Below, one piece after another: positions 4,148 to 34,738 of a stretch of 37,723 bases of DNA (positions are counted from its first letter, which is position 1; each line of letters starts with the position of its first letter). The DNA is from an uncultured Lachnospiraceae bacterium (lineage in GTDB: Bacteria > Bacillota > Clostridia > Lachnospirales > Lachnospiraceae), in NCBI GenBank assembly GCA_948665105.1, contig CAPNGW010000002.1:1-37723 (forward strand). Direction: 5' to 3'. The position numbers were made by a program, and so were the translations under genes. The notes under the pieces were generated by a model, which did no database searches, had not been told where the DNA came from, and saw nothing but the letters and a program-made list of their open reading frames with translations.

Positions 4148-4148
4148 G

Positions 4149-7961: not shown

Positions 7962-7962
7962 A

Positions 7963-13550: not shown

Positions 13551-13569
13551 AGCATCGTTAGGAGGAAAA

Positions 13570-14764: not shown

Positions 14765-16194
14765 ATGCTATTTAACTCATGGCAGTTTTTGCTTTTTATG
14801 ATAATTATTTTTGGCGGTTACTGGGCAATACGCCCCCGATACCGATACTTGTTCCTGCTGGCAGGAAGCTTAATATTTTATGCCAGCTGGGGGCCGGAGT
14901 ATCTCATCTATCTGGCGCTGACGGTGGCGCTGACCTATTGCTCTGGCTTACTGCTTGAAATTTTTGAGGGGGGGGGCAAACATTAGTTCTTATAACAACT
15001 GTTCTTCTGGCAGTTGGCGCACTGATGTTTTTTAAATACACAGGATTTTTGGCGGATATTTTATACAGAACATTTTCTGTGGAAGACCCTCAGACTGTCA
15101 GCATTGTGGCACCCATTGGATTTTCTTTTTATTTGTTTCAGGCTTTAGGCTATGTCATTGATGTTTACCGAAAGAAATATAAGCCGGAGAAGAACCTGGC
15201 CCGGTATGCCCTGTTTGTTTCCTTCTTTCCCCAGGTGATTTCAGGGCCCATTGGCCGGGGAAGGGATTTATTACCGCAATTTCATGGGAATGTAAGCTTT
15301 CAATACGAAGGGGCCATGTATGGAGTAAAGCAGTTTTGCGTGGGCCTGTTTAAAAAGATGGTAGTTTCCAATACCCTTGGAATGATGGTGGATTCCGTTT
15401 ATGGGAACGTCCATGGGTACAAGGGCTTTGTGCTGGCAACAGCAAGCATATTATATATGATACAAATTTACTGTGATTTTTCAGGATATTCCGATATGGC
15501 CATTGGCTGCGCCAGATTACTTGGAATAGAGCTTAAGGAGAACTTTAAGCTGCCGTATTTTTCAAAATCAATTCGTGAGTTCTGGAGACGCTGGCATATT
15601 TCCCTGTCCTCCTGGTTCAGAGACTATTTATACATCCCCCTGGGTGGAAACAGAAAGGGACAGGCACGAAAGAGGATAAATATCTTTTTGACATTTTTAG
15701 TCAGCGGATTATGGCACGGAGCCAATTACACCTATGTGGTGTGGGGAGGCCTTCACGGAATGCTGCAGGTCCTGGAGGACATTTTCATCGGAGGGAAGAT
15801 TAGAACAGGAAAAGGCTGCTGGCCTGTAAACCTCTTAAAGCACGCTTGCGTGCTATGCTTACTTCTTGTTACCTGGATTTTCTTCCGGGCGGAAAGTGTA
15901 AGCGATGCATTCTATGTATTGACCAATATGCTGTCCGGAATTGGAAAGGCAGGGTATTTGAAAGCAGGAATCAGTGGCCTGGGGTTGGACAAGGTTACCC
16001 TTGCCACCACTGTGGTCTCCATACTGGTCCTTGCAATCATAGACAGTATTTCTTATATATGTGGAGATGTCATTGAGAAAGTAAGTAATATGAAGCTGGT
16101 ACTGCGCTGGAGCATTTACATCATTTTTGTGATGATTATCATAGTGTTTACACCAGCCGTAGTGTCAACGGAATTTATATATTTCCAATTTTAG
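14765..16194 (+). pseudogene. MBOAT #1 (AlgI/DltB-like membrane-bound O-acyltransferase), frameshifted at a G9 tract (phase-OFF allele or homopolymer error)
   Basis: ORFs 14765-14986 and 15025-16194 are the N- and C-terminal parts of one MBOAT. The first part starts MLFNSWQFLLF; the second carries YCDFSGYSDMAIG, FWRRWHISLSSWFRDYLYIPLGG and GLWHGA. The downstream frame is already open from 14977 (QTLVLITTVLLAVGALMFFKYTGF). One extra G joins the two frames. Confidence 0.85.
14968..14976 (+). repeat. Poly-G tract (G9) at the MBOAT #1 frameshift site
   Basis: Directly counted. As sequenced it reads gag ggg ggg ggc aaa cat tag, which terminates. Confidence 0.95.
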
Positions 16195-18533: not shown

Positions 18534-19577
18534 ATGTTTAAGGAAAAGACACTTTTAATTACCGGAGGAACAGGTTCTTTTGGAAATGCGGTGCTGAACC
18601 GTTTTCTGAATACAGATGTAAAGGAAATCCGAATTTTCTCCAGAGACGAAAAGAAGCAGGATGATATGCGGCATGAGTATCAGTCAAAATATCCGGAGGC
18701 CAGCAACAAGATTAAATTCTTTATCGGCGATGTAAGGGATTTGGGCTCCGTCCAGAATGCCATGTATGGTGTGGACTATATTTTCCATGCGGCGGCATTG
18801 AAGCAGGTGCCTTCCTGTGAATTCTTCCCCCTGGAGGCAGTCAAAACCAATGTAATCGGAACAGACAATGTTTTGACGGCGGCAATTCAGGCAGGAGTAA
18901 AAAAGGTAATTTGCCTGTCCACAGATAAGGCGGCTTACCCCATCAATGCCATGGGAACATCAAAAGCCATGATGGAAAAGGTAATCGTGGCAAAATCCAG
19001 GACAGTCAACCCCGAAAAGACAAGCATCTGCTGTACCAGATATGGAAATGTCATGTGCTCCAGGGGCTCCGTGATTCCTCTGTTCATTGAACAGATACGT
19101 CAGGGGAATCCCATAACAGTGACTGAGCCCACAATGACCAGGTTTATCATGAGCCTGGAGGAGGCGGTGGAGCTGGTAATCTTTGCATTCCAAAATGCCC
19201 AGTCTGGTGATATAATGGTACAGAAGGCACCGGCCTGCACCATTGAGGTATTGGCCCAGGCGGTGGTGGAATTGTTCCATCCTGGCCACGAAATCAAGGT
19301 GATTGGAATTCGCCACGGTGAAAAAATGTATGAAACGCTTTTAACCAGCGAGGAATGTTCCCATGCCTCTGATTTGGGAGCATTTTACCGGGTGCCATGT
19401 GATAAGAGAGACTTAAATTACGATAAGTATTTTAAAGAAGGGGATAAGGAAAGAAGCGGATTATCTGAATTTAATTCCAACAATACACAGCGTCTTAACG
19501 TGGAGCAGGTGAAAGCGAAGCTGTTGGAACTGGCGTATATTCAGGAAGAATTAAAGGCCCAGGAGAAAAACAAATGA
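18534..19577 (+). CDS. fnlA: UDP-N-acetylglucosamine 4,6-dehydratase/5-epimerase (FnlA/CapE/WbjB)
   Basis: Classic N-terminus MFKEKTLLITGGTGSFGNAVLNRF..EIRIFSRDEKKQ, then MGTSKAMMEK (the M-x3-K variant typical of CapE) and RYGNVMCSRGSVIPLF. Confidence 0.9.
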   Translation: MFKEKTLLITGGTGSFGNAVLNRFLNTDVKEIRIFSRDEKKQDDMRHEYQSKYPEASNKIKFFIGDVRDLGSVQNAMYGVDYIFHAAALKQVPSCEFFPLEAVKTNVIGTDNVLTAAIQAGVKKVICLSTDKAAYPINAMGTSKAMMEKVIVAKSRTVNPEKTSICCTRYGNVMCSRGSVIPLFIEQIRQGNPITVTEPTMTRFIMSLEEAVELVIFAFQNAQSGDIMVQKAPACTIEVLAQAVVELFHPGHEIKVIGIRHGEKMYETLLTSEECSHASDLGAFYRVPCDKRDLNYDKYFKEGDKERSGLSEFNSNNTQRLNVEQVKAKLLELAYIQEELKAQEKNK

Positions 19578-20749
19578 AGATATTAGTTACGGGAGCAAAG
19601 GGGTTTATCGGTAAAAATTTAATAGCCACCTTAAATAATATCCGAACCGGGAAGGATAAAACCCGGGGCCTGTCGGATGATATATTGATTTACGAATATG
19701 ATATGGATTCCGACAGCAGTCTGTTGGACGCATATTGCTCCGGGTGTGATTTTGTGTTTCATCTTGCAGGTGTAAACAGACCCAGGGAAGAGCATGAATT
19801 TATGGAAGGAAACTTTGGCTTCACCTCCCTTTTGCTGGATACACTCAAAAAGCATAAAAATCAATGTCCAGTGATGATTTCATCCTCCATCCAGGCGTCC
19901 CTGGACAACCCATATGGGCGGAGCAAGAAAGCAGGGGAGGATTTGCTGCTTGCTTATGGAAGAGAGACCGGAGCGGCTGTGTATGTGTACCGCTTTTCCA
20001 ATGTATTTGGAAAATGGTGCCGGCCAAATTATAATTCTGTAATAGCCACCTTCTGCCATAATATTGCCCATGATTTACCCATACAGGTAAACGATAAGAG
20101 GGCTGTGCTGGAGCTGGTTTATATTGATGATTTGGTGGAAGAATTACTGGAGGCCTTAAAGGGGCAGCCCCATCTGGATGAGGACGGTTACGGCTTTGTG
20201 CCCACCGTACATACAGTCTCCCTGGGTGAGATTGTAGAGCTTCTCTATTCCTTCCGACAAAGCAGAGAGGAGCTTTGGGTACCGGATATGACAGAGGGTG
20301 GCCTTGAGAAGAAGCTTTATGCCACTTATTTAAGCTATTTACCAAAGGAGCAGTTTAGCTATCCGCTAACCATGCACAAGGATGAGCGGGGAAGCTTTAC
20401 GGAGATTCTTAAGACGGCAGACAGAGGCCAATTCTCTGTGAATATTTCAAAGCCCGGGATTACAAAGGGGGAGCACTGGCATCATACGAAGAATGAAAAA
20501 TTTGTTGTTGTCAGTGGAAAAGGCCGAATTCAATTTCGAAGGGTAGACAGCGATGAAATTATTGAATATACTGTAAATGGAGATGAAATTGTGGTGGTAG
20601 ATATTCCCACAGGCTACACACATAATATTATCAATGAGGGAGACACGGATTTGGTGACCTTTATGTGGTGTAATGAGTGTTTTAACCCGAAGAAGCCGGA
20701 TACTTATTTCTTAAAGGTCCAGGAGACGCCAGAGGAAAAGGGAAGATGA
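19574..20749 (+). CDS. fnlB: UDP-2-acetamido-2,6-dideoxy-L-talose reductase/epimerase (FnlB/CapF/WbjC)
   Basis: N-terminal SDR domain (KILVTGAKGFIGKNL) plus the C-terminal cupin domain (DERGSFTEIL...GITKGEHWHHTKNEKFVVVSGKG) characteristic of CapF. ATGA overlaps on both sides. Confidence 0.85.
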   Translation: MKILVTGAKGFIGKNLIATLNNIRTGKDKTRGLSDDILIYEYDMDSDSSLLDAYCSGCDFVFHLAGVNRPREEHEFMEGNFGFTSLLLDTLKKHKNQCPVMISSSIQASLDNPYGRSKKAGEDLLLAYGRETGAAVYVYRFSNVFGKWCRPNYNSVIATFCHNIAHDLPIQVNDKRAVLELVYIDDLVEELLEALKGQPHLDEDGYGFVPTVHTVSLGEIVELLYSFRQSREELWVPDMTEGGLEKKLYATYLSYLPKEQFSYPLTMHKDERGSFTEILKTADRGQFSVNISKPGITKGEHWHHTKNEKFVVVSGKGRIQFRRVDSDEIIEYTVNGDEIVVVDIPTGYTHNIINEGDTDLVTFMWCNECFNPKKPDTYFLKVQETPEEKGR

Positions 20750-21888
20750 ATAAATTAAAGGTAATGACAATTATAGGAACAAGGCCGGAAATTATCCGGC
20801 TGTCGGCAGTGATAAAAAAGTGCGACAAATATTTTCAGCAGATTTTGGTGCATACGGGCCAGAACTATGATTACAGCTTAAACCAGGTGTTTTTTGAAGA
20901 TTTACAATTAAGGGAGCCGGATTATTACCTGGATGCCGTGGGAGCAGATTTAGGTGAAACAATCGGAAATATTATTGCCAAAAGCTATAAGCTGATGGTT
21001 GAAGTCAGGCCGGACGCTTTGCTTATCCTGGGGGATACCAATAGCTGTCTCAGCGCCATCAGCGCAAAAAGGCTTCACATTCCCATCTTCCATATGGAAG
21101 CCGGCAACCGCTGCTTTGACGAGTGCCTGCCGGAGGAGACGAACCGCCGCATTGTGGACCATATTGCGGATGTGAATCTGTGCTACAGCGAGCATGCCAG
21201 ACGGTATTTGAACAGCGAAGGAACGGCAAAGGAGAGAACCTATGTTACCGGCTCACCCATGGCGGAAGTGCTGCGGAGCAATTTAGCAAAAATAGAGGCC
21301 AGCAATATTTTAGAAAAGCTGGGGCTTTCACATAAAAAATATATTCTTCTTTCCGCACATCGGGAGGAAAATATTGATACAGAGGAGAACTTTCAGCAGC
21401 TGTTTACGGCCATCAATGCCCTGGCAGAGAGCTATGATTTGCCCATCCTGTACTCCTGCCATCCAAGAAGCAAAAAGTTTCTTACGCAGCGGGAGTTTCA
21501 GCTGGACCATCGGGTGAGGATGCATGAGCCTCTGGGCTTTCACGACTATAACCATCTTCAGATGCACGCCTTTGCGGTGGTGAGTGACAGTGGAACACTT
21601 CCGGAGGAGTCAAGCTTTTTCGGCTCCATCGGACATACATTTCCGGCCGTTTGCATCCGTACCAGCACGGAACGTCCCGAGGCCCTGGATAAAGGAAACT
21701 TTGTGCTGGCCGGTATTGGGACCCAGCAGGTGCTTCAGGCTGTGAATCTTGCGGTGCAGATGGTGGAAAATGAGGATAGTGGTACACCGGTTCCGGATTA
21801 CGTGGAAGAAAATGTAAGTGGGAAAGTGATAAAAATTATACAGAGCTATGTGGGCATCGTAAATAAGATGGTGTGGAGGAAAGACTGA
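20746..21888 (+). CDS. fnlC: Non-hydrolysing UDP-N-acetylhexosamine 2-epimerase (FnlC/CapG/WbjD)
   Basis: MTIIGTRPEIIRLS, HTGQNYD, LGDTNS and HMEAGNRCFD are all 2-epimerase family signatures. This is the third gene of the fnlABC trio. Confidence 0.9.
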   Translation: MNKLKVMTIIGTRPEIIRLSAVIKKCDKYFQQILVHTGQNYDYSLNQVFFEDLQLREPDYYLDAVGADLGETIGNIIAKSYKLMVEVRPDALLILGDTNSCLSAISAKRLHIPIFHMEAGNRCFDECLPEETNRRIVDHIADVNLCYSEHARRYLNSEGTAKERTYVTGSPMAEVLRSNLAKIEASNILEKLGLSHKKYILLSAHREENIDTEENFQQLFTAINALAESYDLPILYSCHPRSKKFLTQREFQLDHRVRMHEPLGFHDYNHLQMHAFAVVSDSGTLPEESSFFGSIGHTFPAVCIRTSTERPEALDKGNFVLAGIGTQQVLQAVNLAVQMVENEDSGTPVPDYVEENVSGKVIKIIQSYVGIVNKMVWRKD

Positions 21889-23360
21889 TGGAAAATAGTC
21901 GGGAGATTTGGAGGCAGTCGGAGGAACGGGAAGTAAGAATAAGCGATATTCTGTGGAAAATAGTGGAGTCATGGCGGCTGGTTCTTGTGCTTGCGGTGGT
22001 GTTTGTGCTGCTGGTGACAGGGATATTCTACCTAAGGGCAATCAAAGCAGCCTCCGTGCCTGTTGAGCCCGTGGAGCCCGAAGAAGAGGAAGTCTTGACA
22101 GAGGAGGAAAGTCAGGAAGTTGTCCAGGTGCAAATCGGACAAGCACAGCTTTTGGAGCAGCGGGAATATCAAAAGAAATCCGTTTTGATGAATATCAATG
22201 CGTATGAAAAGAATGTAGTTACATTGGAATACTTTATAGATTCAACGCCTACAGAGAGTGGGAACGGCGATATATTGACCAATACCTACAGAAACTATAT
22301 TACGTCCAACAGGATTGTGGAGGATATAAGAGAGGAATGGAATTCTCCACTGAATGACGGATACATTGGGGAACTGATAGAATGTACGAATAGTGATATG
22401 AATATAAAGATGGGGTTTTTGTACGACGAAGACCAGTTAAGCAAATTAAAACGGAGCAGTGACAAATATTTTGTCGTTTCGGTGACGGGCGCTGACGCGT
22501 CCCAGGCAGAGCAGCTGGCGGATGCGGTGCAGAAGGCCCTGGAAATATATAGTGCCAGGATTGCCCAACAGCTGGGGGAGCAGCAGCTAAAGCCCCTGAA
22601 CCGTTATTCCAGTGTGGTACTGGATGAAAAGCTCATTGACAAGCAGCTAAATCTTCAGACCTCTATTAATGTGCAGCAAGACGCAATCGATAACGCAACC
22701 GAGGGGTTTAGTGAGTTACAACTGCGCATGCTGTATGGGGAGGATGAAGACCAGGAGGAGCCGGTCATTGAGGAGCAGATGCCAAGAAGGCCCGCCCTTA
22801 GTAAGAAAGCCATGGCTTTGGGACTTTTCACAGGAGTTTTCCTGGCTTGTATTTGGGTTGCTCTGCGCTATATGTTTGATCCCAGAATCAAGTCCTCCGA
22901 AGAATTACGGCGCATATACAATATGCGTGTGCTTGGCTTTCGGCAGATCGAAGGTACCTCCAGAAAACGTTTGTTTTCCGGCATCGATACCTGGATTGCA
23001 TCAAAAAAGGACAGGGATAAATTTACGCCGGAAAGCTTAAGCAATATGCTTGTGACGAATATGGCTCTGCTATTAAAAAGAGAGAATATAAGCCGTGTGT
23101 TTTTGGCCTCCGGGAGTGTGGATGAGGGCACAATGGAAGAAATAAATGAGATAATCGGACAACTGAAGGGCGAGGGAATTGAGGCTGTATATGAGAGCAA
23201 TATTGTTTCTGATGCGGCAGCGCTGAAATGTATGTCCGATATTGGAAACGCTGTTTTTGTGGTCAGAGAGAACCTTACCCATTACCAGGAGATGGAGAAA
23301 GCGCTGTTGCTGTGTGAAGCCCAGGAGGTGAGAGTTCTTGGGGGAATTGTGGTGCAGTGA
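21888..23360 (+). CDS. Wzz/CpsC-like polysaccharide co-polymerase fused to a degenerate CpsD-like (P-loop-less) C-terminal domain
   Basis: ATG 21888 overlaps the upstream TGA; the tracked start at 21873 is GTG. TM1 is WRLVLVLAVVFVLLVTGIFYL, followed by a long extracytoplasmic region and TM2 MALGLFTGVFLACIWVALRYMF. The tail of about 165 aa lacks a GxxGxGKS/T Walker A and any Tyr cluster. Confidence 0.7.
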   Translation: MENSREIWRQSEEREVRISDILWKIVESWRLVLVLAVVFVLLVTGIFYLRAIKAASVPVEPVEPEEEEVLTEEESQEVVQVQIGQAQLLEQREYQKKSVLMNINAYEKNVVTLEYFIDSTPTESGNGDILTNTYRNYITSNRIVEDIREEWNSPLNDGYIGELIECTNSDMNIKMGFLYDEDQLSKLKRSSDKYFVVSVTGADASQAEQLADAVQKALEIYSARIAQQLGEQQLKPLNRYSSVVLDEKLIDKQLNLQTSINVQQDAIDNATEGFSELQLRMLYGEDEDQEEPVIEEQMPRRPALSKKAMALGLFTGVFLACIWVALRYMFDPRIKSSEELRRIYNMRVLGFRQIEGTSRKRLFSGIDTWIASKKDRDKFTPESLSNMLVTNMALLLKRENISRVFLASGSVDEGTMEEINEIIGQLKGEGIEAVYESNIVSDAAALKCMSDIGNAVFVVRENLTHYQEMEKALLLCEAQEVRVLGGIVVQ

Positions 23361-23382
23361 TGAGGAATAGGGGAGAAGAAAA

Positions 23383-24894
23383 ATGCAGATATCAATTTTA
23401 GATTATTTGGAAAATTCTGCAAGCCGCTTTCCGGAAAAAATTGTATTTTCGGAGGAAAAGAAACAGATTTCCTATGGCCAATTAGAAAAAACGGCAAAAG
23501 CAGTGGGAAGCAGTATTATAAAAACGGCACAGGGGGTATACAAGCGGCCAATCGTAGTGTTCCTTGACAAGGGAATCGATGTGCTGATTTCCTTTATGGG
23601 CATCGTTTACAGTGGAAATTTCTATACCCCCATAGATGTTCATATGCCGGTTTCCAGAATAAATAAGATTTTAGAGACTCTGCAGCCGGAAATGATGATT
23701 ACGGATGAGGAGCATCTTCACCTCGTAAAAGAAACGGCGTTTGCCAAACACGTATTACTGTTTCAGGAGGCGGCGCAGGCAGAGATATTGACAGAGCAGC
23801 TTGAAAATATCAGGGAGAGAATGACAGATACGGATTTGCTGTACGTACTGTTTACATCGGGCTCCACAGGAACACCCAAGGGGGTTACAATCTGCCACAA
23901 GTCAGTGATTGACTATACGGATTATATCACAGATAAATTTGATATTACTGAAAAGGAAATTTTTGGAAATCAGGCACCTTTTTATTTTGACAATTCCATT
24001 TTAGATATTTATTGCACCTTAAAGGCCGGGGCAACCATGCATATCATTCCAAAGGAGCTGTTTGGACAGCCGGTACTGCTTTTGGAATATTTAAAGAACC
24101 AGCGGATAAATATTATTTTCTGGGTTCCTTCCGCCCTTATCATGGTCTCCAAATTAAAGGCTTTTCGGAATGTAGATATCTCGGAAACTTTGCGTAAGGT
24201 ACTGTTCTGTGGAGAGGTAATGCCAAATAAGCAGTTGAATATATGGCGAAAATATTTGCCGCATGTATTGTATGCCAATTTGTATGGCCCCACCGAGATT
24301 ACAGACGCATGTACCTGTTATGTGGTAGACCGGAAATTTGAGGACAATGAGCCTTTGCCCATTGGCACTCCCATGGGAAATACCGGGATTCTTGTGCTGA
24401 ATGAGGGGGATGAGCTGGTGAAGGGTGACGAGATTGGCGAGCTCTGCGTAAGGGGGACCTGCCTGTCTCCTGGCTATTATAATAATCCCGAAAAAACCAG
24501 GGAGGCGTTCATACAAAACCCCTTGAATAAAGCTTATCTGGAATGGATTTATCGAACAGGAGATCTGGTGCGGTATAACGAGTACGGGGAACTGATTTAT
24601 CTGTCCAGAAAGGATTTCCAGATTAAGCATATGGGGCACCGAATCGAACTGGGAGAAATTGAGAATGCTGTTTCCTCCATGGAGGGGATGTCCTCCTGCT
24701 GCTGCTTGTATGATGAAAAGAGAAGCAAGATTGTTCTCTTTATAGAAGAGGATTTAGAGAAGGAAACCATTATAAATGGTATTAAGAATCTGGTGCCGGA
24801 CTATATGTACCCGGGTAAGGTGATTAAGCTGGATAAGCTGCCGATGAATGCCAATGGAAAAACAGACAGGGTAGCATTGAAACAATACTTATAG
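23383..24894 (+). CDS. DltA-like amino-acid adenylating enzyme (carrier-protein ligase), module 1
   Basis: Adenylation cores LFTSGSTGTPKGV, NQAPFYFDNSILDIY, FCGEVMP, LYGPTEITD, YRTGDLVRY..GELIYLSRKDFQIKHMGHRIELGEIE and NANGKTDR. It is collinear with B. subtilis DltA as I recall it. Confidence 0.85.
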   Translation: MQISILDYLENSASRFPEKIVFSEEKKQISYGQLEKTAKAVGSSIIKTAQGVYKRPIVVFLDKGIDVLISFMGIVYSGNFYTPIDVHMPVSRINKILETLQPEMMITDEEHLHLVKETAFAKHVLLFQEAAQAEILTEQLENIRERMTDTDLLYVLFTSGSTGTPKGVTICHKSVIDYTDYITDKFDITEKEIFGNQAPFYFDNSILDIYCTLKAGATMHIIPKELFGQPVLLLEYLKNQRINIIFWVPSALIMVSKLKAFRNVDISETLRKVLFCGEVMPNKQLNIWRKYLPHVLYANLYGPTEITDACTCYVVDRKFEDNEPLPIGTPMGNTGILVLNEGDELVKGDEIGELCVRGTCLSPGYYNNPEKTREAFIQNPLNKAYLEWIYRTGDLVRYNEYGELIYLSRKDFQIKHMGHRIELGEIENAVSSMEGMSSCCCLYDEKRSKIVLFIEEDLEKETIINGIKNLVPDYMYPGKVIKLDKLPMNANGKTDRVALKQYL

Positions 24895-24920
24895 ATATCA
24901 GGTAAGAAAGGCAGAAAAAA

Positions 24921-25154
24921 ATGGAAGAAAGAATTTTGGAAATTTTAGGAGAGGTGAATGAAGAAATCCTCTCATACGAGGGAGACCGGCTCACCAAGGA
25001 CAGTATTATAGATTCTTTTGAAATTATCAATATTGTTTCAGAGCTGGAGGAGGAATTTGATATTGAAATTGATGCGAAATATGTCGTTCATGAAAACTTT
25101 GAGAACAAGGACACAATTATCGCACTGGTAAAGAGGCTGGTGGAAGAGCAGTAG
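24921..25154 (+). CDS. DltC-like acyl/aminoacyl carrier protein, module 1
   Basis: 77 aa and acidic, with the phosphopantetheine-attachment context SIIDSFEIINIV (compare DltC LLDSFGTVELL). It lies between the adenylating enzyme and the MBOAT. Confidence 0.8.
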   Translation: MEERILEILGEVNEEILSYEGDRLTKDSIIDSFEIINIVSELEEEFDIEIDAKYVVHENFENKDTIIALVKRLVEEQ

Positions 25155-25167
25155 ATGAGGTTTCAAA

Positions 25168-26727
25168 ATGCAGTTTGCGTCTGTTGAATTTGGGATATTC
25201 TTTTTGCTGGTTTTAGGAATATATTATCTGGTTAATCAAAGACGAAGATGGATGGTATTGCTGGCTGCCAGTATGGTGTTCTGTGGACATTCTTCCCCAT
25301 GGCATTTCATTTACTTGATGATAGCAATCAGTGTCAGCTTTTTTGCCGCTAAAATCATTGAGAAGCTCCATGAGGATGAGGCGAGAGAGCTTTTTCATAA
25401 GAAGGATATCAGCAGGGAGGAAAAAAAGAAGCTTAAGAATCACTTTAAGAAGAAAAAGCAATGGGTCATAGGGGTCCTGCTTTTCCTTTTGCTGACAGTT
25501 ATTCTCGCACTCAAGCTGGCAAAAAAGCTTTCTCTCATTCAGGAAGGCGCATTGGGCATCCTGATTCCTTTGGGAATTTCTTATTATACATTGGTCATGA
25601 TTGGCTATTGCATAGATGTTTACAGGGAAAAATATCCGGCAGATTCCAATTTTTTTAAGTTCACACTTACAATTATGTATTTTCCCTCATTGCTCCAGGG
25701 ACCAATCAACCGCGTGGATGCGTTAAGGGAGCAATTATTTCAGGAGATACACTGGAATTATTTTGAGGTAAAAGCCGGATTGCAGAGAGCGGTCTGGGGA
25801 TTGTTTAAAAAGCTGGTGATTGCAGACAGGCTGGCAATTTTTGTGAATCAGATTTACGGTGATTTTGGTAATCAGGCAGGAAGCTTTTTGGCAGTCGGAA
25901 CCATTGCATATGCAATTCAGTTGTATGCAGATTTCTCTGGATACATGGATATCGCCATTGGCATCAGCAGAACCTTTGGCGTAAAGCTGGCAGAGAATTT
26001 TAAATGTCCGTACTTTTCTGTTTCAATCAGTGAATTTTGGAAAAAATGGCATATAACCTTGGGCGACTGGTTCAAGGATTACCTGATGTTTCCCTTTGCA
26101 ATGTCTCAGACAGGAAGAAACATAGGGAAGCAAGGACAGAGGATATTTGGAAAGCAGGGAGGCAAAAAGCTTACACTATACCTTGCAACTATGCTGGTGT
26201 GGTTTTCCACCGGCTTATGGCATGGGATTGAGTGGAACTTTATTACCTGGGGGGGGGTATACGGCGTAATAATGGTACTCTCTGATTTTCTGGACCCCCT
26301 TTTTGAAAAGATAAGGAATCGGTGGGGAATCACTAAGGAAAAACGTTGGTTTCGATTTTTTTGCTATATCAGAACCTTTTCCATCGTGTGCTTGGCGGAC
26401 ATTCTGTTCCGGGCGCCAGGATTGAGAGAGGCAGTTATAATCATAAAAAAGATTTTATTTGAATTCCAGGTAAGTGCAATAGAAAACACTGAAATTTGGC
26501 TTTTACAGCTTACAGAGCAGGACTATGTGGTTTTGGTGATATGTTTGATTGCCGGGCTTTTGGTGCATATACTGCATCAAAAGAGAAAAAGCGTTTCGGT
26601 CATATTAGAGCAAAGAAATGTAGTGACCAGATGGATGGTTTATTTCGGGATTACCTGGATTATCATTTTGTTTGGGATATATGGAAGCGGGTATTCGTTG
26701 GAAGGCTTTGCTTATATGCAGTTTTAG
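25168..26727 (+). CDS. MBOAT #2 (DltB/AlgI-like), intact
   Basis: 519 aa and polytopic, with YADFSGYMDIAIG, FWKKWHITLGDWFKDYLMFPF, GLWHGIEW and the C-terminal ...GFAYMQF-stop. It contains an in-frame G9 tract. Confidence 0.9.
   Translation: MQFASVEFGIFFLLVLGIYYLVNQRRRWMVLLAASMVFCGHSSPWHFIYLMIAISVSFFAAKIIEKLHEDEARELFHKKDISREEKKKLKNHFKKKKQWVIGVLLFLLLTVILALKLAKKLSLIQEGALGILIPLGISYYTLVMIGYCIDVYREKYPADSNFFKFTLTIMYFPSLLQGPINRVDALREQLFQEIHWNYFEVKAGLQRAVWGLFKKLVIADRLAIFVNQIYGDFGNQAGSFLAVGTIAYAIQLYADFSGYMDIAIGISRTFGVKLAENFKCPYFSVSISEFWKKWHITLGDWFKDYLMFPFAMSQTGRNIGKQGQRIFGKQGGKKLTLYLATMLVWFSTGLWHGIEWNFITWGGVYGVIMVLSDFLDPLFEKIRNRWGITKEKRWFRFFCYIRTFSIVCLADILFRAPGLREAVIIIKKILFEFQVSAIENTEIWLLQLTEQDYVVLVICLIAGLLVHILHQKRKSVSVILEQRNVVTRWMVYFGITWIIILFGIYGSGYSLEGFAYMQF
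26249..26257 (+). repeat. Poly-G tract (G9), in frame within MBOAT #2
   Basis: Directly counted: tgg ggg ggg gta encodes W-G-G-V. Confidence 0.95.
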
Positions 26728-26743
26728 GTGAATAGGATATCAA

Positions 26744-27535
26744 ATGATGATAAGGATAGAAAACGGCGAGGAATTTTATTCAATATTAAAAGCGTTTAAG
26801 AAGAAGAACAGGAGAATAATATCTAATTTTTTGATGTTTCCGGAAGAGCTTGAAAAGCTGATGAGAGAAAAGAAAGTTTTTTACATGGAGGGGGAGGCAG
26901 GGATTAGCCTTTTTGTGGAGTATGAAGCACACTTTTCTTTTTACTTTTTCTACAAAGGATTGGATGTACCCATAGAAGTAAGAAGATTGGATAAGCCGGT
27001 TGCCTGCGAGATATTTACGAAGAATCAGTTGGAAGAAGGGATAGATGAGAGATTTATAAAAGAAAATTTTCGACAAATAGGTATTTATAAAAGATATATC
27101 TTAAAAAGTGAAAATATTCATGATGTAAAAAGTGGGAACTCCGTTAGGAAAAAAGCAGGAGCAATACATGAAGTCTGGGATGGCATAAAAGAAAACTTTA
27201 ATGTGTTGACGGACCATCTGGTATCTCAGGATGAAATGGAAGAGAAATATGCGGATAAACAATTTTTTTATTATAATCAGGCAAATAGAATAGAAGGTGC
27301 GTTGATTCATGAAACGAAAAATAAAAAATCTGTATTGGAATATATCTTTGTATATCCGGAATTTCGAAAAAAAGGTGTTGCCAGGGAATTGCTGGAAACC
27401 TGGCTTGCCACTTATTTTCAAGCAATAAATAAATTTGAATTATGGGTAAGTACAGAAAATAGGGAGGCTATAGAATTGTACAAAAGATATGGATTCCAGG
27501 AGGATGGCCTTATAAAATATGTTTATTTGATATAA
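26744..27535 (+). CDS. GNAT-family N-acetyltransferase with an uncharacterised N-terminal domain
   Basis: C-terminal GNAT motif A, IFVYPEFRKKGVARELLETWL, followed by AIELYKRYGFQEDG. The gene is very AT-rich. Confidence 0.7.
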   Translation: MMIRIENGEEFYSILKAFKKKNRRIISNFLMFPEELEKLMREKKVFYMEGEAGISLFVEYEAHFSFYFFYKGLDVPIEVRRLDKPVACEIFTKNQLEEGIDERFIKENFRQIGIYKRYILKSENIHDVKSGNSVRKKAGAIHEVWDGIKENFNVLTDHLVSQDEMEEKYADKQFFYYNQANRIEGALIHETKNKKSVLEYIFVYPEFRKKGVARELLETWLATYFQAINKFELWVSTENREAIELYKRYGFQEDGLIKYVYLI

Positions 27536-27603
27536 TTTTTTAGTATAGAGCCAGGTTTATAGTGAGAGCAGGAATAAAGCAGAATGAAAGGTAAAGAGGA
27601 ACG

Positions 27604-29418
27604 ATGGGGCTTTTGATATTATTGGTATTTTTGCTGGCAGTGCCTGGGGTAATTGGAATGGCGGGTGAGAAAATACTAATTAACAGACGAAGAATTAGCA
27701 TGGCCGAGAGTTATCTATGGGGAAACATTATTCTCTGGGCGCTTTTTCAGATACTGTGTGTGCCCATGGCTATGCTTGGAATGAGCTTTAGCATTTTTTC
27801 CGTGATATTTCTGATAATTATCATTGCTTTGACCATGCTTGCTTTGATTAAATACGGCCAGTATATGATTCTGAAAGTGGTTATGCTGAAAGAAGAAATA
27901 AGGAGATTTGGCTGGAAGGAAATCCTGCTGATTACTATAATCGCAGCGCAGATTCTTATATTGGTGTTTGGGGTAACTTATGAATCAAGTGCAGATGATG
28001 CTTCTTATATAGCACTGTCTCTGGACACACTTTCTACAGACCGCATAGCACAGCTGGATCCATATACAGGGCTTGAGGGAGCCATATCGTTAAAACGTAT
28101 ATTGACCTCCTGGAATTTTTATCTCTCATTTTTAGGAAAAATTTCAGGTATTCATGTGGCTGCCATAGCACATACAATTCTGCCAATACTACTTGTACCT
28201 ATGGCGTATATGGCATATCTTTTAATAGGTAGGGCGATTTTCGGAAAGAACAGGAAAAGGACGGTTCAGTTTTTGCTATGGCTGAGCCTGCTGTTTACCT
28301 TCGGCGCTTATTCTATCTATACGGTAACATATCGCCTGACGATTGTGGTCTGGCAGGGAAAAGCTGTGATGGTAACCATTATATTGCCGTTTTTATTTTG
28401 TTTTTTAATCAAAATGAAAGAGATAAAATTAAAGAAAACGGTATGCCTGTTCCTGATTATGGCGTCGGCCTGTGCCATGAGCCTGATGGGCGTTGGACTT
28501 TCTGTTTTTATGGTTATTGTTTCAGCAGTTGCCAAGCTAAAAAGGCATAAAGTAAAGACAGTGGTACCTTTACTGCTGACAGGCATATTGATTTCCATGG
28601 TGGCATTTTACTATATGTGGATGAGAGGGGAAGGGATTTTGTTTTCCCCTAAGTATATTCAGAAGCTGTTCCCCCAGGCTGTGACTATGATAAGAGAGGC
28701 GTTTTCTCTTTACTGGAATGGGACTAAAATACAATGGCTGTATCTTGGTGGATTTTTGATTATATGTTGGCGGGGAAGAAAAAAAAGGAATGTACGATTT
28801 CTCATAAAGTATGCACTGGTTAGTTACATAATTATTTGGAATCCGGTATTTTATTACTTTGCCTTTGTATTTTTAAAAAATGCAAGCACAGGGGTACGGC
28901 TGATTTATACAATGTTTCCAGAGGTGTATATGGCTCTGGCTATGACATTTTTGACTTGCGCATTTCGGGACAGGAAGGGGAGTATGATTGCAGGAGGGGT
29001 TGGTGGCTTGTATATTTTGCTGACAGGGACCATATATCCTAAGGTGGGACATCCTGTGCTTGCAGAGAATACTTATAAGCTGCCCAATGAAGCTGTTCAA
29101 GTGTGCCAGATTCTAAATGAAGATTCAGAAGAACCACCCCTTGTGATGGCAGATGGCGGATTGGTTCTGTATCTGCGCCAATATAGCAGCCGCGTGAAAA
29201 TGGTATATGGCAGATATGGTTATATATATCAGGGAGAACAAATTTTTCAATTAATAAATGAACAGCGGATAACCAAAGAAGAAATATGGACATTTCTGGA
29301 AGAAAATAACTGTGATTATGTGGTATGGAGAAAAAATGATGCAGATATAGAGGCGTTCATACAACTGGGGGGAGAGCTGATTGAAGAAACACAGAATTAT
29401 GCTATCATAAAAAGATAA
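27604..29418 (+). CDS. Uncharacterised polytopic membrane protein (more than 10 TM) with a C-terminal soluble domain; possibly GT-C-like
   Basis: 604-aa ORF with many hydrophobic helices and an acidic loop motif, YESSADDASY, after the early TMs. The soluble tail of about 130 aa starts near residue 470. No family is confidently recognised. Confidence 0.65.
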   Translation: MGLLILLVFLLAVPGVIGMAGEKILINRRRISMAESYLWGNIILWALFQILCVPMAMLGMSFSIFSVIFLIIIIALTMLALIKYGQYMILKVVMLKEEIRRFGWKEILLITIIAAQILILVFGVTYESSADDASYIALSLDTLSTDRIAQLDPYTGLEGAISLKRILTSWNFYLSFLGKISGIHVAAIAHTILPILLVPMAYMAYLLIGRAIFGKNRKRTVQFLLWLSLLFTFGAYSIYTVTYRLTIVVWQGKAVMVTIILPFLFCFLIKMKEIKLKKTVCLFLIMASACAMSLMGVGLSVFMVIVSAVAKLKRHKVKTVVPLLLTGILISMVAFYYMWMRGEGILFSPKYIQKLFPQAVTMIREAFSLYWNGTKIQWLYLGGFLIICWRGRKKRNVRFLIKYALVSYIIIWNPVFYYFAFVFLKNASTGVRLIYTMFPEVYMALAMTFLTCAFRDRKGSMIAGGVGGLYILLTGTIYPKVGHPVLAENTYKLPNEAVQVCQILNEDSEEPPLVMADGGLVLYLRQYSSRVKMVYGRYGYIYQGEQIFQLINEQRITKEEIWTFLEENNCDYVVWRKNDADIEAFIQLGGELIEETQNYAIIKR

Positions 29419-29443
29419 TTTTATGCAGCGGAGGATACCAAAG

Positions 29444-31020
29444 ATGTCTTACACATCATTACTTTTCTTTATATTTGTTATTGCACTGATTTTTGTCTAC
29501 TATATAGTGCCAAAGAGCTGGCAGTGGAAGGTACTGCTCATTGCAAATATCATATTCTATGCCTCCAATGGCGTAATACCACTTGTTTTCATAACAGCAA
29601 CCACTCTTTTGACATGGTTTGCAGCACTTTTATTGGAAAAGAAGGACCTCTGCCAGAGCAGGGAGCTGGAAGGGGAACCCCTTTCAAGGGAAGAGAAAAA
29701 CCAAATCAAGGTAGCGTATAAGAGACAGAAAAAAGGAATTCTCATACCTGTGCTCTTAATGGTATTTGGACTTCTTGCATATGCCAAATATACAAATTTT
29801 GGTATTGGTATTATTAATGGTATTGCAGGAGTGGACATGATACAAGTACAAAGTATCATCGTCCCCCTGGGAATCTCTTTTTACACTTTTATGTCCGTAG
29901 GATATATCCTGGATATCTACTGGAAAAAATATCCTGCGGAGCATAATTTCTTTAAGTATGCAACATTTACAACGTTTTTCCCCCATGTGGTACAAGGCCC
30001 CATTGGGCGCTATAATAAGCTGGCTCCGGAATTTTTCAAAGGAAGGCATTATGATTTTCGTCAAATGGTGTCTGGCTTTGAGTTATTTTTATGGGGACTT
30101 TTCCAAAAGCTAGTAATTGCTGACCGTCTCGGTATTTTTGTTGATAACGTTTTTGCAGACTACCAAAATACCGGGGGGGGGTATTTCTATTAACGCTGGC
30201 GTTTTATTCCATTCAAACGTATGCTGATTTCTCCGGCTGTATGGATATCTGCCGGGGGATTTCTGAGATTCTTGGAATCCATCTTGAGAAGAACTTCAAT
30301 CATCCGTATTTTGCAAAAACCATACCGGAGTTCTGGCAGAGATGGCATATCTCTATGGGAGCATGGTTTAAGGATTACCTGTTTCTACCCATTTCCAATT
30401 CATCCTTTGTAAAAAAATCAAGTAAAAAATTAGGAGTGAAATATGGCTCCGGTGTCAGAAAAAAATTTGCGGCGAGCTTTCCTGTTGCCATTGTCTGGCT
30501 GGCCACCGGTGTCTGGCATGGCGCCGGATGGACCTTTATTTTCTGGGGATTGTTCCATGGGTGCCTGACAATCGGAGGTACGGTTTTTTCTGAAAGAATC
30601 TCCAGGCTCACATCCGTATTACATATTCCAACAAAAGCATTTTGGTGGAAATTATTTCAGATGTCCAGAACCTTTTTCCTGTGCTGTATAGGAAGAATTT
30701 TCTTTCGGGCTCCGGATTTGCAGGTGGCGGGGCATATTATAAAGAAAATAACCACAGATTTGCAATATCAATCACTGTTTAGTGGACACATATTTCAATT
30801 CGGTTTGGGCAGAGAGAATATGATGATAGCCTTGGCCTCCATTGGTATTTTATGGAGCGTCAGCATGCTGCAGGAAAGATGCTCTATTCGGGAAAAGGTG
30901 GCGAAGCAGAATATTGTAATGCGGTACGCATTGCTTTACATCGCGATTTTTTCTATTTTGATTTTAGGTATCTATGGGCCAGGTTATGATACATCAACTT
31001 TTATTTACAATGCATTTTAA
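29444..31020 (+). pseudogene. MBOAT #3 (DltB/AlgI-like), frameshifted at a G9 tract (phase-OFF allele or homopolymer error)
   Basis: ORFs 29423-30193 and 30241-31020 are two halves of one MBOAT. The likely start is ATG 29444 (MSYTSLLFF) after a GGAGGA RBS. The downstream frame is open from 30181 (VFLLTLAFYSIQTYADFSGCMDICRG). Later motifs are FWQRWHISMGAWFKDYLFLP and GVWHGAGW. One extra G joins the two frames. Confidence 0.85.
30173..30181 (+). repeat. Poly-G tract (G9) at the MBOAT #3 frameshift site
   Basis: Directly counted. As sequenced it reads acc ggg ggg ggg tat ttc tat taa, which terminates. Confidence 0.95.
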
Positions 31021-31035
31021 AGGAGGAACAAGAGA

Positions 31036-31254
31036 ATGGAACAGATTGTACAAATTATCAGAGAGATTTGCCCCACCATTGGTGAGCTGGAGGGAGTGAA
31101 GCTTGTCACAGACAAAATCATTGATTCCGTGGAGCTGGTGCAAATCATTTCTGACCTGGAAGAGGCGTTTCAGGTGGAAATTGATATGGAGGATATTGTG
31201 CCGGAAAATTTTGATACGGTAGAAGCGATTTGGAAGCTGATACAGCAGCTTTAG
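31036..31254 (+). CDS. Acyl carrier protein, module 2
   Basis: 72 aa and acidic, with the Ser attachment context KIIDSVELVQIISDLEEAF and a strong AGGAGG RBS upstream. Confidence 0.8.
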   Translation: MEQIVQIIREICPTIGELEGVKLVTDKIIDSVELVQIISDLEEAFQVEIDMEDIVPENFDTVEAIWKLIQQL

Positions 31255-31263
31255 GAGAGAGAA

Positions 31264-32718
31264 ATGTATACATCTGTGTTGGAAGCAATTTATAAGCATA
31301 GCAGGAGCAGGGCAAAGAGGCTGGCGGTTGCAGATGAGAAGCTATCTCTGAACTACGAAGAATTATGGAGGCTGATTGTCCTTAAGGCTTCAGTGCTGGG
31401 CGAGGGATTTGCCATCAGTGATTATGTGTTGGTGGAATGTTCTCAGGATGTGGCGTTTATTGTGAAATGTCTGGCTTGCCAGTACGCGGGCCTGATTAGT
31501 GTGCCTGTGGAAATGCAGGCGCCTTTGGAACGAATCTGGGAGCTTCAAAGGAAGCTGGGCACAACATCATTGATAGGCAGGGGGGATTATGAGATTGATA
31601 AGGAAGAGCTGTACTCTGCCTTTCAAGGTGATGCTGGCAATCAGCCTGCACCGGAGGGATTTCCCCGGAAGGATGTGGTGGCTGAGATTCTCTACACCAC
31701 CGGAACTACCGGAGAATCCAAAGGAATCGCAATTACACATGGCAATAATATTGCCATCACGGAAAATATTATCTGCGGAACCCAAATGGAGGAGGACAGT
31801 GTAGAATTGGTCCCCTTGCCCTTGAGCCATTCTCACGGGCTGAGAACGGTATACGCCAACCTTGTACATGGCAGTTCGGTGGTGGTTTGTGATGGTGTGC
31901 TTCAAATAAAAAGAATCTTTCAGTTAATAGGCCAATACCAGGTTACAGCCTTGGACTTATCTCCCAGCGCGGCCCAGGTGTTGATGAAGCTTTCCAAAGG
32001 AAAATTGAAGGATTACAGAGAGCAAATCAGATTCGTACAGCTGGGGACGGCAATGCTTTCAGAAAATGTGAAGGATTTATTACGCAGCACCTTTCCGGAG
32101 AGCAGGCTATATAACTTTTATGGTTCTACGGAAGCGGGAAGAACCTGCTCCTTGGACTTTAACCATGAAAGGGTTGGGGAAGGCTGTATTGGACATCCCA
32201 GCGTGAACGCGCGTTTTATCCTGGTGGATGAAGAGGGGGAAGAGATTACCCAAAGGGGAAGAGAGTATACCGGACGTTTGGCTGTTGCAGGCTCTATGAA
32301 TATGAAGGAGTATATAGGTGAGCCGGAGCTTACCGGGGAGGTTATGCATGGCGGATATATATATACCTCTGATATATCTTATATAGACGCAGAGGGTTTG
32401 GTATACGTACTGGGACGTGCAGATGATATTATTAATTACAAGGGCATAAAAATTTCTCCTGCAGAAGTGGAGGCAATTATTATAAAGTGTTCCGAAATAA
32501 AAGAATGCGCCCTTGTGGCGAAAGAGGACACAATGTGTGGCCAGATACCGGTACTGTTTGTTGTACCCGAAGAAGAATATGAGGAACAAAGGCTGGTGAG
32601 CCATATAAAAGAGCTTGTGGAAGATAATAAGAGGCCCAAATTAATAAAGAAGGTGGAGGAGCTTCCCAAAACATCAAATGGGAAGATATTAAGAAGAAGA
32701 CTGAGGGAGTGGTTGTGA
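31264..32718 (+). CDS. AMP-dependent acyl ligase (acyl-CoA synthetase/FAAL-like), module 2
   Basis: ANL superfamily cores LYTTGTTGESKGI, FYGSTEAGR, YIYTSDISYIDAEGLVYVLGRADDIINYKGIKISPAEVE and SNGKILRR. It has PLPLSHSHGL where amino-acid adenylation domains carry the FDxS Asp. Confidence 0.85.
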   Translation: MYTSVLEAIYKHSRSRAKRLAVADEKLSLNYEELWRLIVLKASVLGEGFAISDYVLVECSQDVAFIVKCLACQYAGLISVPVEMQAPLERIWELQRKLGTTSLIGRGDYEIDKEELYSAFQGDAGNQPAPEGFPRKDVVAEILYTTGTTGESKGIAITHGNNIAITENIICGTQMEEDSVELVPLPLSHSHGLRTVYANLVHGSSVVVCDGVLQIKRIFQLIGQYQVTALDLSPSAAQVLMKLSKGKLKDYREQIRFVQLGTAMLSENVKDLLRSTFPESRLYNFYGSTEAGRTCSLDFNHERVGEGCIGHPSVNARFILVDEEGEEITQRGREYTGRLAVAGSMNMKEYIGEPELTGEVMHGGYIYTSDISYIDAEGLVYVLGRADDIINYKGIKISPAEVEAIIIKCSEIKECALVAKEDTMCGQIPVLFVVPEEEYEEQRLVSHIKELVEDNKRPKLIKKVEELPKTSNGKILRRRLREWL

Positions 32719-32793
32719 GAGGTAAGAATGGGGAATATAGGGGATTTAATGGAAGCCACTGTTCCATAGAACAATAAAAGATAAAAAGAGAAT

Positions 32794-32822
32794 TTGACTT
32801 TCCATCGCGTATTATGTATAAT
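32794..32822 (+). promoter_or_regulatory. Near-consensus sigma-A promoter-like element
   Basis: TTGACT (32794-32799), a 17-nt spacer, then TATAAT (32817-32822). It lies upstream of the terminator palindrome and about 135 nt before the ABC operon start. Confidence 0.4.
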
Positions 32823-32834
32823 AAGTTCAATCAA

Positions 32835-32876
32835 GCAAAAATAAAGCGCCATTTTGAACACGCGCTTTATTTTTGC
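32835..32876 (+). terminator. Rho-independent (bidirectional-type) terminator ending the polysaccharide operon
   Basis: Perfect 15-bp inverted repeat, GCAAAAATAAAGCGC (32835-32849) with GCGCTTTATTTTTGC (32862-32876), around a 12-nt loop. The GC core is flanked by A-rich 5' and T-rich 3' arms. Confidence 0.65.
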
Positions 32877-32957
32877 AAATTTTGCATAAAGTTACAGAGT
32901 ATTCTGTTCAGTACTGTCACTGTCAAATAGCTGTTTTGAACAAGAAAGGAAAACAAA

Positions 32958-33956
32958 ATGAGAAAAATGAAAAAGTTACGTGTATTCCCCGTAGTATTAA
33001 CGGCAGCCCTGTTCACAGGCCTGCTGGCCCTCTCTGGCTGCGGCTCCAAAAAGGAACAGGTATTAATCTACACCAGTGCCGAGTCCTATCGGGTAGACGA
33101 TTTGAAAGCCCGGCTCGAGAAAGAATTCCCCGATTATGACTGTGTTGTGGAATACAAGGATACCGGAAGCCATGCGGCTCAGCTCATCGCAGAGGGCAAG
33201 GAGACAGACTGCGACATCACCTATGACCTGGAGTATTCCTACCTGGAGGAGCTGGCGACTGCAGGTGTCTTGGCAGATGTGTCTGACTATGACACCTCTG
33301 TCTATACCGAGGACGCCATCACCAGCAGCTTCTATCTCCCGGAGCTTAAGAACGGCGGAGCCATCGTTATCAATCCCGATGTATTGGCCGAAAAGAATCT
33401 GCCGGTACCCCAAAGCTATGAGGACTTACTGAAGCCGGAATACGCGGGTCAGATTTCCATGCCCAGCCCCAAATCCTCCGGTACCGGATATATGTTTTTG
33501 AAATCCCTGGTCAACTCCATGGGAGAGGACGCAGCTTTTGCCTATTTTGACAGCCTTACAGAGAATATCCTGTCCTATACCTCCTCTGGCTCCGGTCCCA
33601 TCAATGCCCTGAAGAATAAAGAGGTGGGAATTGGCTTAGGGATGACGGCGCAGGCAGTCACTGCCATCAATGAAGGAGCCAATCTGGAGATTCTCTATTT
33701 TGCGGAAGGCTCTCCCTACTCCATGTACGGGCAGGCGATAATCAGCGGGAAGGAAGAGCGCGCTTGTGTGAAGGAAGTATTTGACTTTATGATCAATACA
33801 TACGGCAAGGAAACCAACGAGAAATTTTATCCCGAGAAGATTTTTAAGGATATAACCCCTGAAATTGAGAATTACCCCACCGACATCAGCTATGCAGATA
33901 TGAGCAACAATACCTCGGAAGAAAAAGCCAGGCTGTTGGAGAAGTGGAATCACTAG
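32958..33956 (+). CDS. ABC transporter substrate-binding lipoprotein (Fbp/ThiB/PhnS/PotD-like family)
   Basis: Signal peptide with lipobox LALSGC (Cys28). Its size of 332 aa and the SSGTGY segment are typical of cluster-D type solute-binding proteins. First gene of the ABC operon. Confidence 0.8.
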   Translation: MRKMKKLRVFPVVLTAALFTGLLALSGCGSKKEQVLIYTSAESYRVDDLKARLEKEFPDYDCVVEYKDTGSHAAQLIAEGKETDCDITYDLEYSYLEELATAGVLADVSDYDTSVYTEDAITSSFYLPELKNGGAIVINPDVLAEKNLPVPQSYEDLLKPEYAGQISMPSPKSSGTGYMFLKSLVNSMGEDAAFAYFDSLTENILSYTSSGSGPINALKNKEVGIGLGMTAQAVTAINEGANLEILYFAEGSPYSMYGQAIISGKEERACVKEVFDFMINTYGKETNEKFYPEKIFKDITPEIENYPTDISYADMSNNTSEEKARLLEKWNH

Positions 33957-33973
33957 GAAGGGAAGTGTGAACA

Positions 33974-34738
33974 ATGGTGAAAACCAGTCATAAACTGGAA
34001 GCAGTATCCCTGGTACAGAGCTTTGACGGAAAGTGTGCGCTGGATAAGGTGAGCTTCCAGGTACAGGAGGGAGAATTTCTCTCCATCTTAGGCCCCTCGG
34101 GCTGTGGTAAGACGACCCTGCTTCGGATTTTAATCGGACTTCTCAAGCCCACGGAAGGATTGCTTTACAAGGACGGCGTTGACATTACCCATACCCCGGC
34201 TGCAGAGCGCGGCATGGGCATTGTGTTCCAGAATTATGCTCTTTTTGAAAATATGACCGTTCTGGGGAATGTGGAATACGCCCTGAAAATCAAAAAAGCC
34301 ACCAGGCAGGAGGCCAGAAGCAAGGCGGAGGCCATGATTGCGCACATGGGTCTTAAGGAGCATATGGCAAAAAAGCCCCACGAGCTTTCCGGCGGACAGC
34401 AGCAGCGTGTGGCTATAGCCAGAACACTGGTCTTAAATCCCGACGTAATTCTCTTTGATGAGCCCATGTCGGCCCTGGATGCAGATACACGTCTCATGCT
34501 TAGGAAGGAGCTGAAAAAGCTCCAGAAGGAGTTCGGCACCACCATGATTTATATCACCCATGACCAGGAGGAGGCATTTGCGCTTTCTGACCGGATTATG
34601 GTCATGGAGGAGGCGAAGGTGGTGCAGCTTGCCACCCCGGAGGAGATTATTGATTCACCGGCCAATGATTATGTGCGGACCTTCGTGCTTCAAAATCTCC
34701 AGGCAAAAATTGATTCTCTTGTGAAATATGTAAGGTGA
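33974..34738 (+). CDS. ABC transporter ATP-binding protein
   Basis: Walker A GPSGCGKTT, Q-loop FQNYALF, signature LSGGQQQR, Walker B ILFDEP and H-loop ITHDQ. At 254 aa it has no C-terminal TOBE-like extension. Confidence 0.9.
   Translation: MVKTSHKLEAVSLVQSFDGKCALDKVSFQVQEGEFLSILGPSGCGKTTLLRILIGLLKPTEGLLYKDGVDITHTPAAERGMGIVFQNYALFENMTVLGNVEYALKIKKATRQEARSKAEAMIAHMGLKEHMAKKPHELSGGQQQRVAIARTLVLNPDVILFDEPMSALDADTRLMLRKELKKLQKEFGTTMIYITHDQEEAFALSDRIMVMEEAKVVQLATPEEIIDSPANDYVRTFVLQNLQAKIDSLVKYVR

Follow-up and report, generated by a model that had tools for sequence, protein, structure and literature searches.

We investigated a G9 homopolymer (30173–30181, forward strand, as are all features below) in a gene for a DltB-like membrane-bound O-acyltransferase (MBOAT) of an uncultured Lachnospiraceae bacterium. 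The gene is the third of three MBOAT genes (MBOAT#1 to MBOAT#3) in a capsule locus on contig CAPNGW010000002.1 of assembly GCA_948665105.1, of which a stretch of 37,723 nt, here called the window, was analyzed. We consider that the run is a slippage-driven contingency locus and that the window caught MBOAT#3 in the OFF state, and we place the probability of this reading at about 0.8. The tract lies within the coding sequence, changes in its length toggle between a full-length and a truncated product, and its repeat number varies among otherwise identical clonal contigs.

As sequenced, the N-terminal open reading frame of MBOAT#3 (29444–30193) starts at ATG 29444 behind the ribosome-binding site GGAGGA (ATG 29423 is an alternative start), reads ADYQNTGGGYFY and terminates at the stop codon 30191–30193, giving 249 aa that end in DYQNTGGGYFY; this exact product is already recorded as P0122. 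The tract encodes Gly-Gly-Gly at about aa 245–247. The C-terminal part continues in a shifted frame from 30181 to the stop codon 31018–31020, begins with VFLLTLAFYSIQTYADFSGCMDICRG and contains the RW-H302 and W-H359-G motifs, and the fragment matched Pfam PF03062 with 31.6 bits against a cutoff of 27. Inserting one G in silico produced a stop-free frame of 525 aa. The predicted product is therefore 525 aa at G10 (ON) and 249 aa at G9 (OFF), with 260 aa at G8 and 261 aa at G11, and the downstream ATG 30241 has no recognizable ribosome-binding site. The original prediction, that the gene is split exactly at the G9 tract, continues in the other frame from 30181 through 31020 and becomes a continuous MBOAT of about 525 aa upon addition of one G, was borne out by translation. 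The same holds for its statements that MBOAT#1 is repaired in the same direction and that both OFF genes are short by one G; one added G restores MBOAT#1 to 476 aa.

The repaired MBOAT#3 has full-length relatives at 99% and 93% identity, and an intact homolog, P0001, carries PF03062 in the precomputed assignment; its residues 135–375 align to the DltB structures 8jem and 6bug (E about 4e-24). Across 32 aligned homologs, W301-H302 and W358-H359-G360 were invariant, and they align with W288-H289 and W335-H336 of DltB, in which His289 and His336 are the active-site residues (PMC11035591). Both histidines of MBOAT#3 are encoded 3′ of the G9 tract; the 249-aa product is thus expected to be inactive, and the G9 allele should be a null allele. 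Because this product lacks both histidines, the OFF state may reasonably be taken to silence module 2, which consists of MBOAT#3, a carrier protein and a ligase. Against the DltB equivalog model TIGR04091, MBOAT#3 scored 144.6 bits, below the cutoff of 375; judged by this score, it is DltB-like but no DltB ortholog.

Tract lengths of 8, 9 and 10 were found at the homologous MBOAT#3 site among 25 related contigs. The strongest evidence for real length variation comes from ten contigs (L003–L012) that represent a single clone, sampled in 10 different SRA runs of the same project (SRR29547526 to SRR29547642): over 2–15.8 kb they had 0 mismatches against L009 and differed at poly-G lengths only. 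The MBOAT#3 tract was G9 in six, G10 in three and G8 in one of the ten. An upstream tract, tract A, was G10, G10 and G8 in the three contigs that cover it, and a tract in a downstream 578-aa MBOAT was G10 in six and G9 in two. The three tracts varied independently, since the combinations of tract A, MBOAT#3 and the 578-aa MBOAT included 10/9/10, 10/10/10, 8/8/10, –/9/9 and –/10/9 (a dash marks a tract not covered). Tract length is thus polymorphic within one clone across samples. Population-level profiling of tract length had been proposed as a check on slippage; as approximated here from public assemblies, its outcome favors slippage.

Other pairs of closely related contigs agreed with this picture. 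L001 matched window positions 19442–34413 with 99.39% identity, 89 substitutions and three indels, all of them homopolymeric; it carries MBOAT#3 at G10 (ON) and MBOAT#2 at G8 (OFF, 366 + 151 aa), and the window has the opposite states. L107 and L109 had 0 mismatches over 20.3 kb, and their single difference was the MBOAT#1 tract, G9 (ON, 476 aa) versus G10 (OFF). At the protein level, the 90%-identity cluster of MBOAT#3 comprised 525-aa proteins, 249-aa N-terminal fragments, 259-aa C-terminal fragments and third-frame fragments. Within this cluster, the intact 525-aa form occurred on at least 79 contigs (P0127 alone is indexed in 64 blocks) and the 249-aa fragments on at least 35 (P0124 on 16 and P0126 on 18). 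The cluster of MBOAT#1 likewise contained 476-aa proteins alongside fragments. A second GenBank metagenome-assembled genome (MAG) of the same strain, GCA_948634295.1 (L094), also has G9. An apparent 30-nt insertion in its MBOAT#3 (about 7025–7041, corresponding to window position about 29735) proved to be a scaffold gap (N10), flanked by duplicated sequence, in an A-rich stretch and was rejected as an assembly artifact. A scan of JGI metagenomes with variable tract length and degenerate flanks gave 0 matches to the tract.

Across 27 sequences, all G-runs of at least 8 nt with at least three observations were variable, whereas the A/T runs of 7–8 nt present in at least five contigs were invariant in 16 of 16 cases. 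In addition, four complete Logan contigs end inside poly-G (L004 and L101 at their starts, L010 and L093 at their ends); L093, from run ERR7159397, is 100% identical to window positions 69–30176 and terminates four Gs into the MBOAT#3 tract. As a de Bruijn assembler stops where reads disagree, these breaks suggest assembly-graph branching from mixed tract lengths within samples, but a drop in read quality could do likewise.

Long G-runs are also more frequent in the window than expected. The counts of G-runs of lengths 3 to 10 were 385, 108, 29, 7, 1, 1, 3 and 1; the counts first decay geometrically and then peak again at 9–10. Four runs of at least 9 nt were observed, compared with about 0.2 extrapolated from the geometric decay of runs of 3–6; order-k estimates were set aside, as they are inflated by the tracts themselves. 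All six G-runs of at least 7 nt lie on the coding strand, in frame within coding sequences, and the window contains no C-runs longer than 5. The surroundings of the orthologous transporter, 1.2 Mb in total from 80 related species, contained no run of G or C of at least 8 nt; these species were identified via the flanking ABC permease at no more than 74% identity, the nearest being Oscillospiraceae-, Acutalibacteraceae- and Faecousia-type MAGs. The protein family does not seem to demand the run either: a single Gly is invariant at the tract site across 32 homologs, and homologs of at most 60% identity read, for example, YAGV, YDGV or HGGA. The GGG-GGG-GGG run is therefore not required for protein function, as just one Gly is conserved.

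The tract has been kept in alleles that have diverged to a synonymous divergence (dS) of about 0.27. The ratio of nonsynonymous to synonymous divergence (dN/dS) of MBOAT#3 was 0.12–0.19 in the N- and C-terminal halves alike, and the alleles had no other disabling mutations; purifying selection acts on the gene. Decay of MBOAT#3 as a pseudogene was rejected on the same dN/dS values. In a roughly 90%-diverged lineage, an A replaces the first G of the tract in both MBOAT#1 and MBOAT#3 (L002 5375–5384; L107 10205–10213 and 21268–21276), giving A+G9 at the MBOAT#3 site (ACC AGG GGG GGG GTA) and AGA+G9 at the MBOAT#1 site. With an A in place of the first G, the ON length there is 9 instead of 10, so that point substitutions at the tract edge reset the ON length. 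In the MBOAT#3 lineage with G9 in frame, all 10 of the 10 cluster members were full length.

We weighed three other explanations of the G9 allele. The simplest is a sequencing or assembly artifact, in which the true tract is G10, one G was under-called and the gene is intact. The window is a MAG contig, both of its OFF genes are exactly one G short, and the contig breaks could stem from lower read quality after poly-G rather than from mixed lengths. However, G10 was called in many assemblies, including those of the very project that also yielded G9 and G8, and under-calling would require errors in 6–7 of the 10 samples of one clone. The changes also go both ways, as MBOAT#2 is G9 or G8 and MBOAT#1 of the other lineage is OFF by an extra G. 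Moreover, the 16 A/T runs did not vary, the second MAG gives G9 for the same strain, and the full-length G9 alleles of the diverged lineage indicate that G9 itself is not under-called. Homopolymer under-calling, which the original prediction had named as the alternative, is thus disfavored, and we regard it as highly improbable. A second possibility is that G9 is real at the DNA level and still expressed, through transcriptional slippage or ribosomal frameshifting, so that the tract tunes the level of the enzyme. Bacterial transcription is well established to slip on long A/T homopolymers, and a low level of such expression would be compatible with the data. No frameshift-stimulating element came to light, though no search aimed at one was made. 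Slippage of this type is, however, generally less efficient on G-runs than on A/T runs, and the length variation observed directly in DNA suffices for the data, which makes this explanation highly improbable.

The frameshift may also be real but a dead end, with a pseudogene whose tract variation is neutral noise. Two of the three MBOATs in the window are OFF simultaneously, and the window lineage has lost a 440-aa gene downstream of the ligase. This gene follows the module-2 ligase in the L003–L012 and L095–L106 lineages (L009 13280–14602) and shows a faint DltD match (E 0.007). Such a dead end is nevertheless very unlikely, given the low dN/dS in both halves and the lack of further lesions, the coexistence of ON and OFF forms within single clones, the retention of the tract over a dS of 0.27 although the family conserves one Gly, and the ON state of MBOAT#3 in the near-identical L001. 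The slippage reading is supported by the clone that has G8, G9 and G10 without a single-nucleotide difference, the common intact G10 form, the two-way changes and the invariant A/T runs.

Several points weigh against a reversible switch as the explanation. All tract lengths are assembly consensus values, and contig counts are non-independent samples of cells, biased by which projects contain the organism. Reversibility within the lineage, which like the slippage mechanism we infer, rests on the occurrence of G8, G9 and G10 in one clone. The 440-aa gene is missing from both the window (32718–32958) and L001; module 2 could be partly degenerate in the window lineage, in which case ON and OFF would be selectively neutral.

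If MBOAT#3 is switched by slippage, slipped-strand mispairing at replication would add or remove one G. G10 (or G7 or G13) would keep the frame and yield the 525-aa enzyme, whereas with G9 translation would stop at codon 250, before either active-site histidine is reached. In the ON state, module 2 would load an organic acid onto its carrier protein, and MBOAT#3 would move the acyl group across the membrane onto a capsular or exopolysaccharide; switching would then remove or restore one surface decoration. That module 2 acylates the polysaccharide of the locus, with this kind of acyl substrate and acceptor, is proposed by analogy with the Dlt pathway. A role in fitness, such as escape from phages or antibodies, may be envisaged.

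The partners of MBOAT#3 lie immediately downstream. The carrier protein (31036–31254; 72 aa, PP-binding, DltC/ACP-like) is preceded by the ribosome-binding site AAGGAGG, and the AMP-forming ligase (31264–32718; 484 aa), which also has its own ribosome-binding site, closes the capsule operon. The ligase scored best against fatty-acid/aryl-acid CoA-ligase models and reached 133 bits against the DltA model, for which the cutoff is 560. DltD is absent from the window. A DUF6077 membrane protein (27604–29418; 604 aa) directly precedes MBOAT#3 in every lineage examined. In the L095–L106 lineage (L095 8113–9967), DUF6077 appears as two adjoining open reading frames of 356 and 260 aa with their junction at a G6 run (CTGGGGGGATAAGATG). 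A promoter and terminator scan of 27000–33200 found nothing exceeding shuffled sequences inside module 2. In the 240-nt gap after the ligase, a sigma-70-like promoter (32794–32822; near-consensus TTGACT-17-TATAAT, 11 of 12 matches) marks the boundary where the capsule operon ends and the ABC-transporter genes begin.

These genes belong to an operon-like locus of approximately 33 kb on one strand, with 44% G+C, followed by the ABC transporter. Besides the three MBOATs, it codes for a pyruvyl transferase, FnlA/B/C-like epimerases, Wzx- and Wzy-like proteins, an initiating sugar transferase and several glycosyltransferases. Module 1 of the locus comprises a ligase (23383–24894), a carrier protein (24921–25154) and MBOAT#2; its ligase has a true amino-acid adenylation domain (TIGR01733, 346 bits; cutoff 317). 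An A7 run (24915–24921; GGCAGAAAAAAATGG), which is A6 in L001, separates the ribosome-binding site of the module-1 carrier-protein gene from its ATG. It was the sole variable A/T run seen, and the change would alter the spacing from ribosome-binding site to start codon.

The tracts of the three MBOATs lie at different codons (68 in MBOAT#1, 361 in MBOAT#2 and 244 in MBOAT#3). MBOAT#1 (14765–16194) is split by a G9 tract (14968–14976) and is OFF as sequenced, with G10 as the ON length. The G9 tract of MBOAT#2 (26249–26257, in a gene at 25168–26727 for 519 aa) is in frame and ON, and G8 is OFF; the census counted G9 seven times and G8 four times (L001, L097, L098 and L105). Three further in-frame tracts, in each of which a gain or loss of one G truncates the product, are candidate switches: a G10 (13752–13761) in an FrhB/FdhB-like Fe-S protein (13495–14763), a G8 (4511–4518) in an open reading frame of 268 aa with no Pfam match (4098–4904) and a G7 (8352–8358) in a hexapeptide acyltransferase (7924–8493). 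In L107/L109, the 90%-diverged locus, the corresponding hexapeptide acyltransferase gene carries a G10 close to the 3′ end, where the flanks differ. The small open reading frame with tract A (L009 4323–5055, tract 4694–4703) would be full length, at 243 aa plus stop, at G9 only and was OFF in all three covering contigs (G10, G10 and G8). Five of nine distinct poly-G tracts (4511, 13752, 26249 and 30173 in the window and 4694 in L009) share a flank of the form TAC(C)(N)-Gn-T(A/G)T, for example ataccaG8tatttt, aataccG9tatttc and ttacctG9tatacg, and the host proteins and tract positions are unrelated.

Since all three MBOATs carry a tract of their own, as do at least three other genes of the locus, combinatorial surface chemotypes are possible. 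In a wider reading, to which we give even odds, the capsule locus of this uncultured species from the human or animal gut would hold a Campylobacter-style multi-locus poly-G phasome, in which the three MBOAT acyl or aminoacyl decorations and other modifying enzymes switch independently. One clone could then display dozens of chemotypes, and pressure from phages or IgA would shift their proportions between hosts or time points.

Homopolymer contingency loci are textbook knowledge for Campylobacter, Neisseria and Haemophilus. Campylobacter jejuni NCTC11168 has 29 polyG/polyC tracts of at least 7 nt, mostly in enzymes modifying capsule, lipooligosaccharide and flagella (PMC4965091). As in C. jejuni, the tracts described here are intragenic in the range G8–G11 with G9 and G10 dominant, translation is toggled by gain or loss of one G, and several tracts cluster in surface-glycan modification genes, which allows combinatorial expression states. 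Unlike C. jejuni, an epsilonproteobacterium without mismatch repair, the host is an uncultured Gram-positive-type member of the gut Clostridia with 44% G+C, and the genes targeted encode MBOAT/DltB-like acyltransferases that are paired with carrier proteins and ligases. Repeat- or frameshift-switched capsule O-acetyltransferases form a second comparison; they include wciZ (15B/15C, TA repeat), wcjE and wciG of Streptococcus pneumoniae, oatC of Neisseria meningitidis and neuO of Escherichia coli K1, and the pneumococcal wciG and wcjE frameshifts have reportedly been the subject of published studies. There, too, a repeat-mediated frameshift toggles O-acyl decoration of the capsule and leaves the backbone untouched. 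However, those enzymes are of the acyltransferase-3, hexapeptide or SGNH types and use acetyl-CoA-derived acetate, whereas here MBOATs are concerned, of which two are each coupled to a dedicated carrier protein and an adenylating ligase, and one locus holds all three switchable paralogs.

In the Dlt pathway, the DltA ligase, the DltC carrier protein, the MBOAT DltB and DltD bring about D-alanylation of teichoic acids (PMC11035591). Module 2 resembles it in that MBOAT#3 aligns to DltB with both histidines conserved and is adjoined by a small carrier protein and an AMP-forming ligase. In contrast to Dlt, the module-2 ligase is nearer to fatty-acid/aryl-CoA ligases than to DltA, no DltD is present in the window, the module lies within a Wzx/Wzy capsule locus and MBOAT#3 exceeds DltB in length by approximately 100 aa. 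Phase variation of Bacteroides capsules by invertible promoters (Porter et al. 2020, as cited in PMC12413058) offers a parallel in the gut; as that account presents it, members of a single commensal clone there likewise come to differ at random in their surface polysaccharide, but by recombinase-driven promoter inversion acting on whole loci instead of homopolymer slippage in single decorating enzymes. Our literature searches found no paper linking MBOAT/Dlt-like enzymes to homopolymer phase variation and none on contingency loci in gut Clostridia.

The mechanism proposed for MBOAT#3 is classic homopolymer phase variation; what is new is only the host and the target, namely carrier-protein-dependent capsule acylation modules. 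Among gut commensals, the main known examples of stochastic capsule switching are the invertons of Bacteroides, and the multi-locus phasome, if true, would be a separate route by which gut Firmicutes diversify their capsules. Should the switch prove real, MAGs of such organisms ought to keep their "pseudogenes" frameshifted at G-runs, neither discarded nor silently repaired, and phasotypes would be readable straight from public strain-level metagenomics, in the way that more than 25 contigs were read here. Carrier-protein-dependent capsule acylation would then be a candidate determinant of variable antigens or phage receptors in an abundant uncultured lineage.

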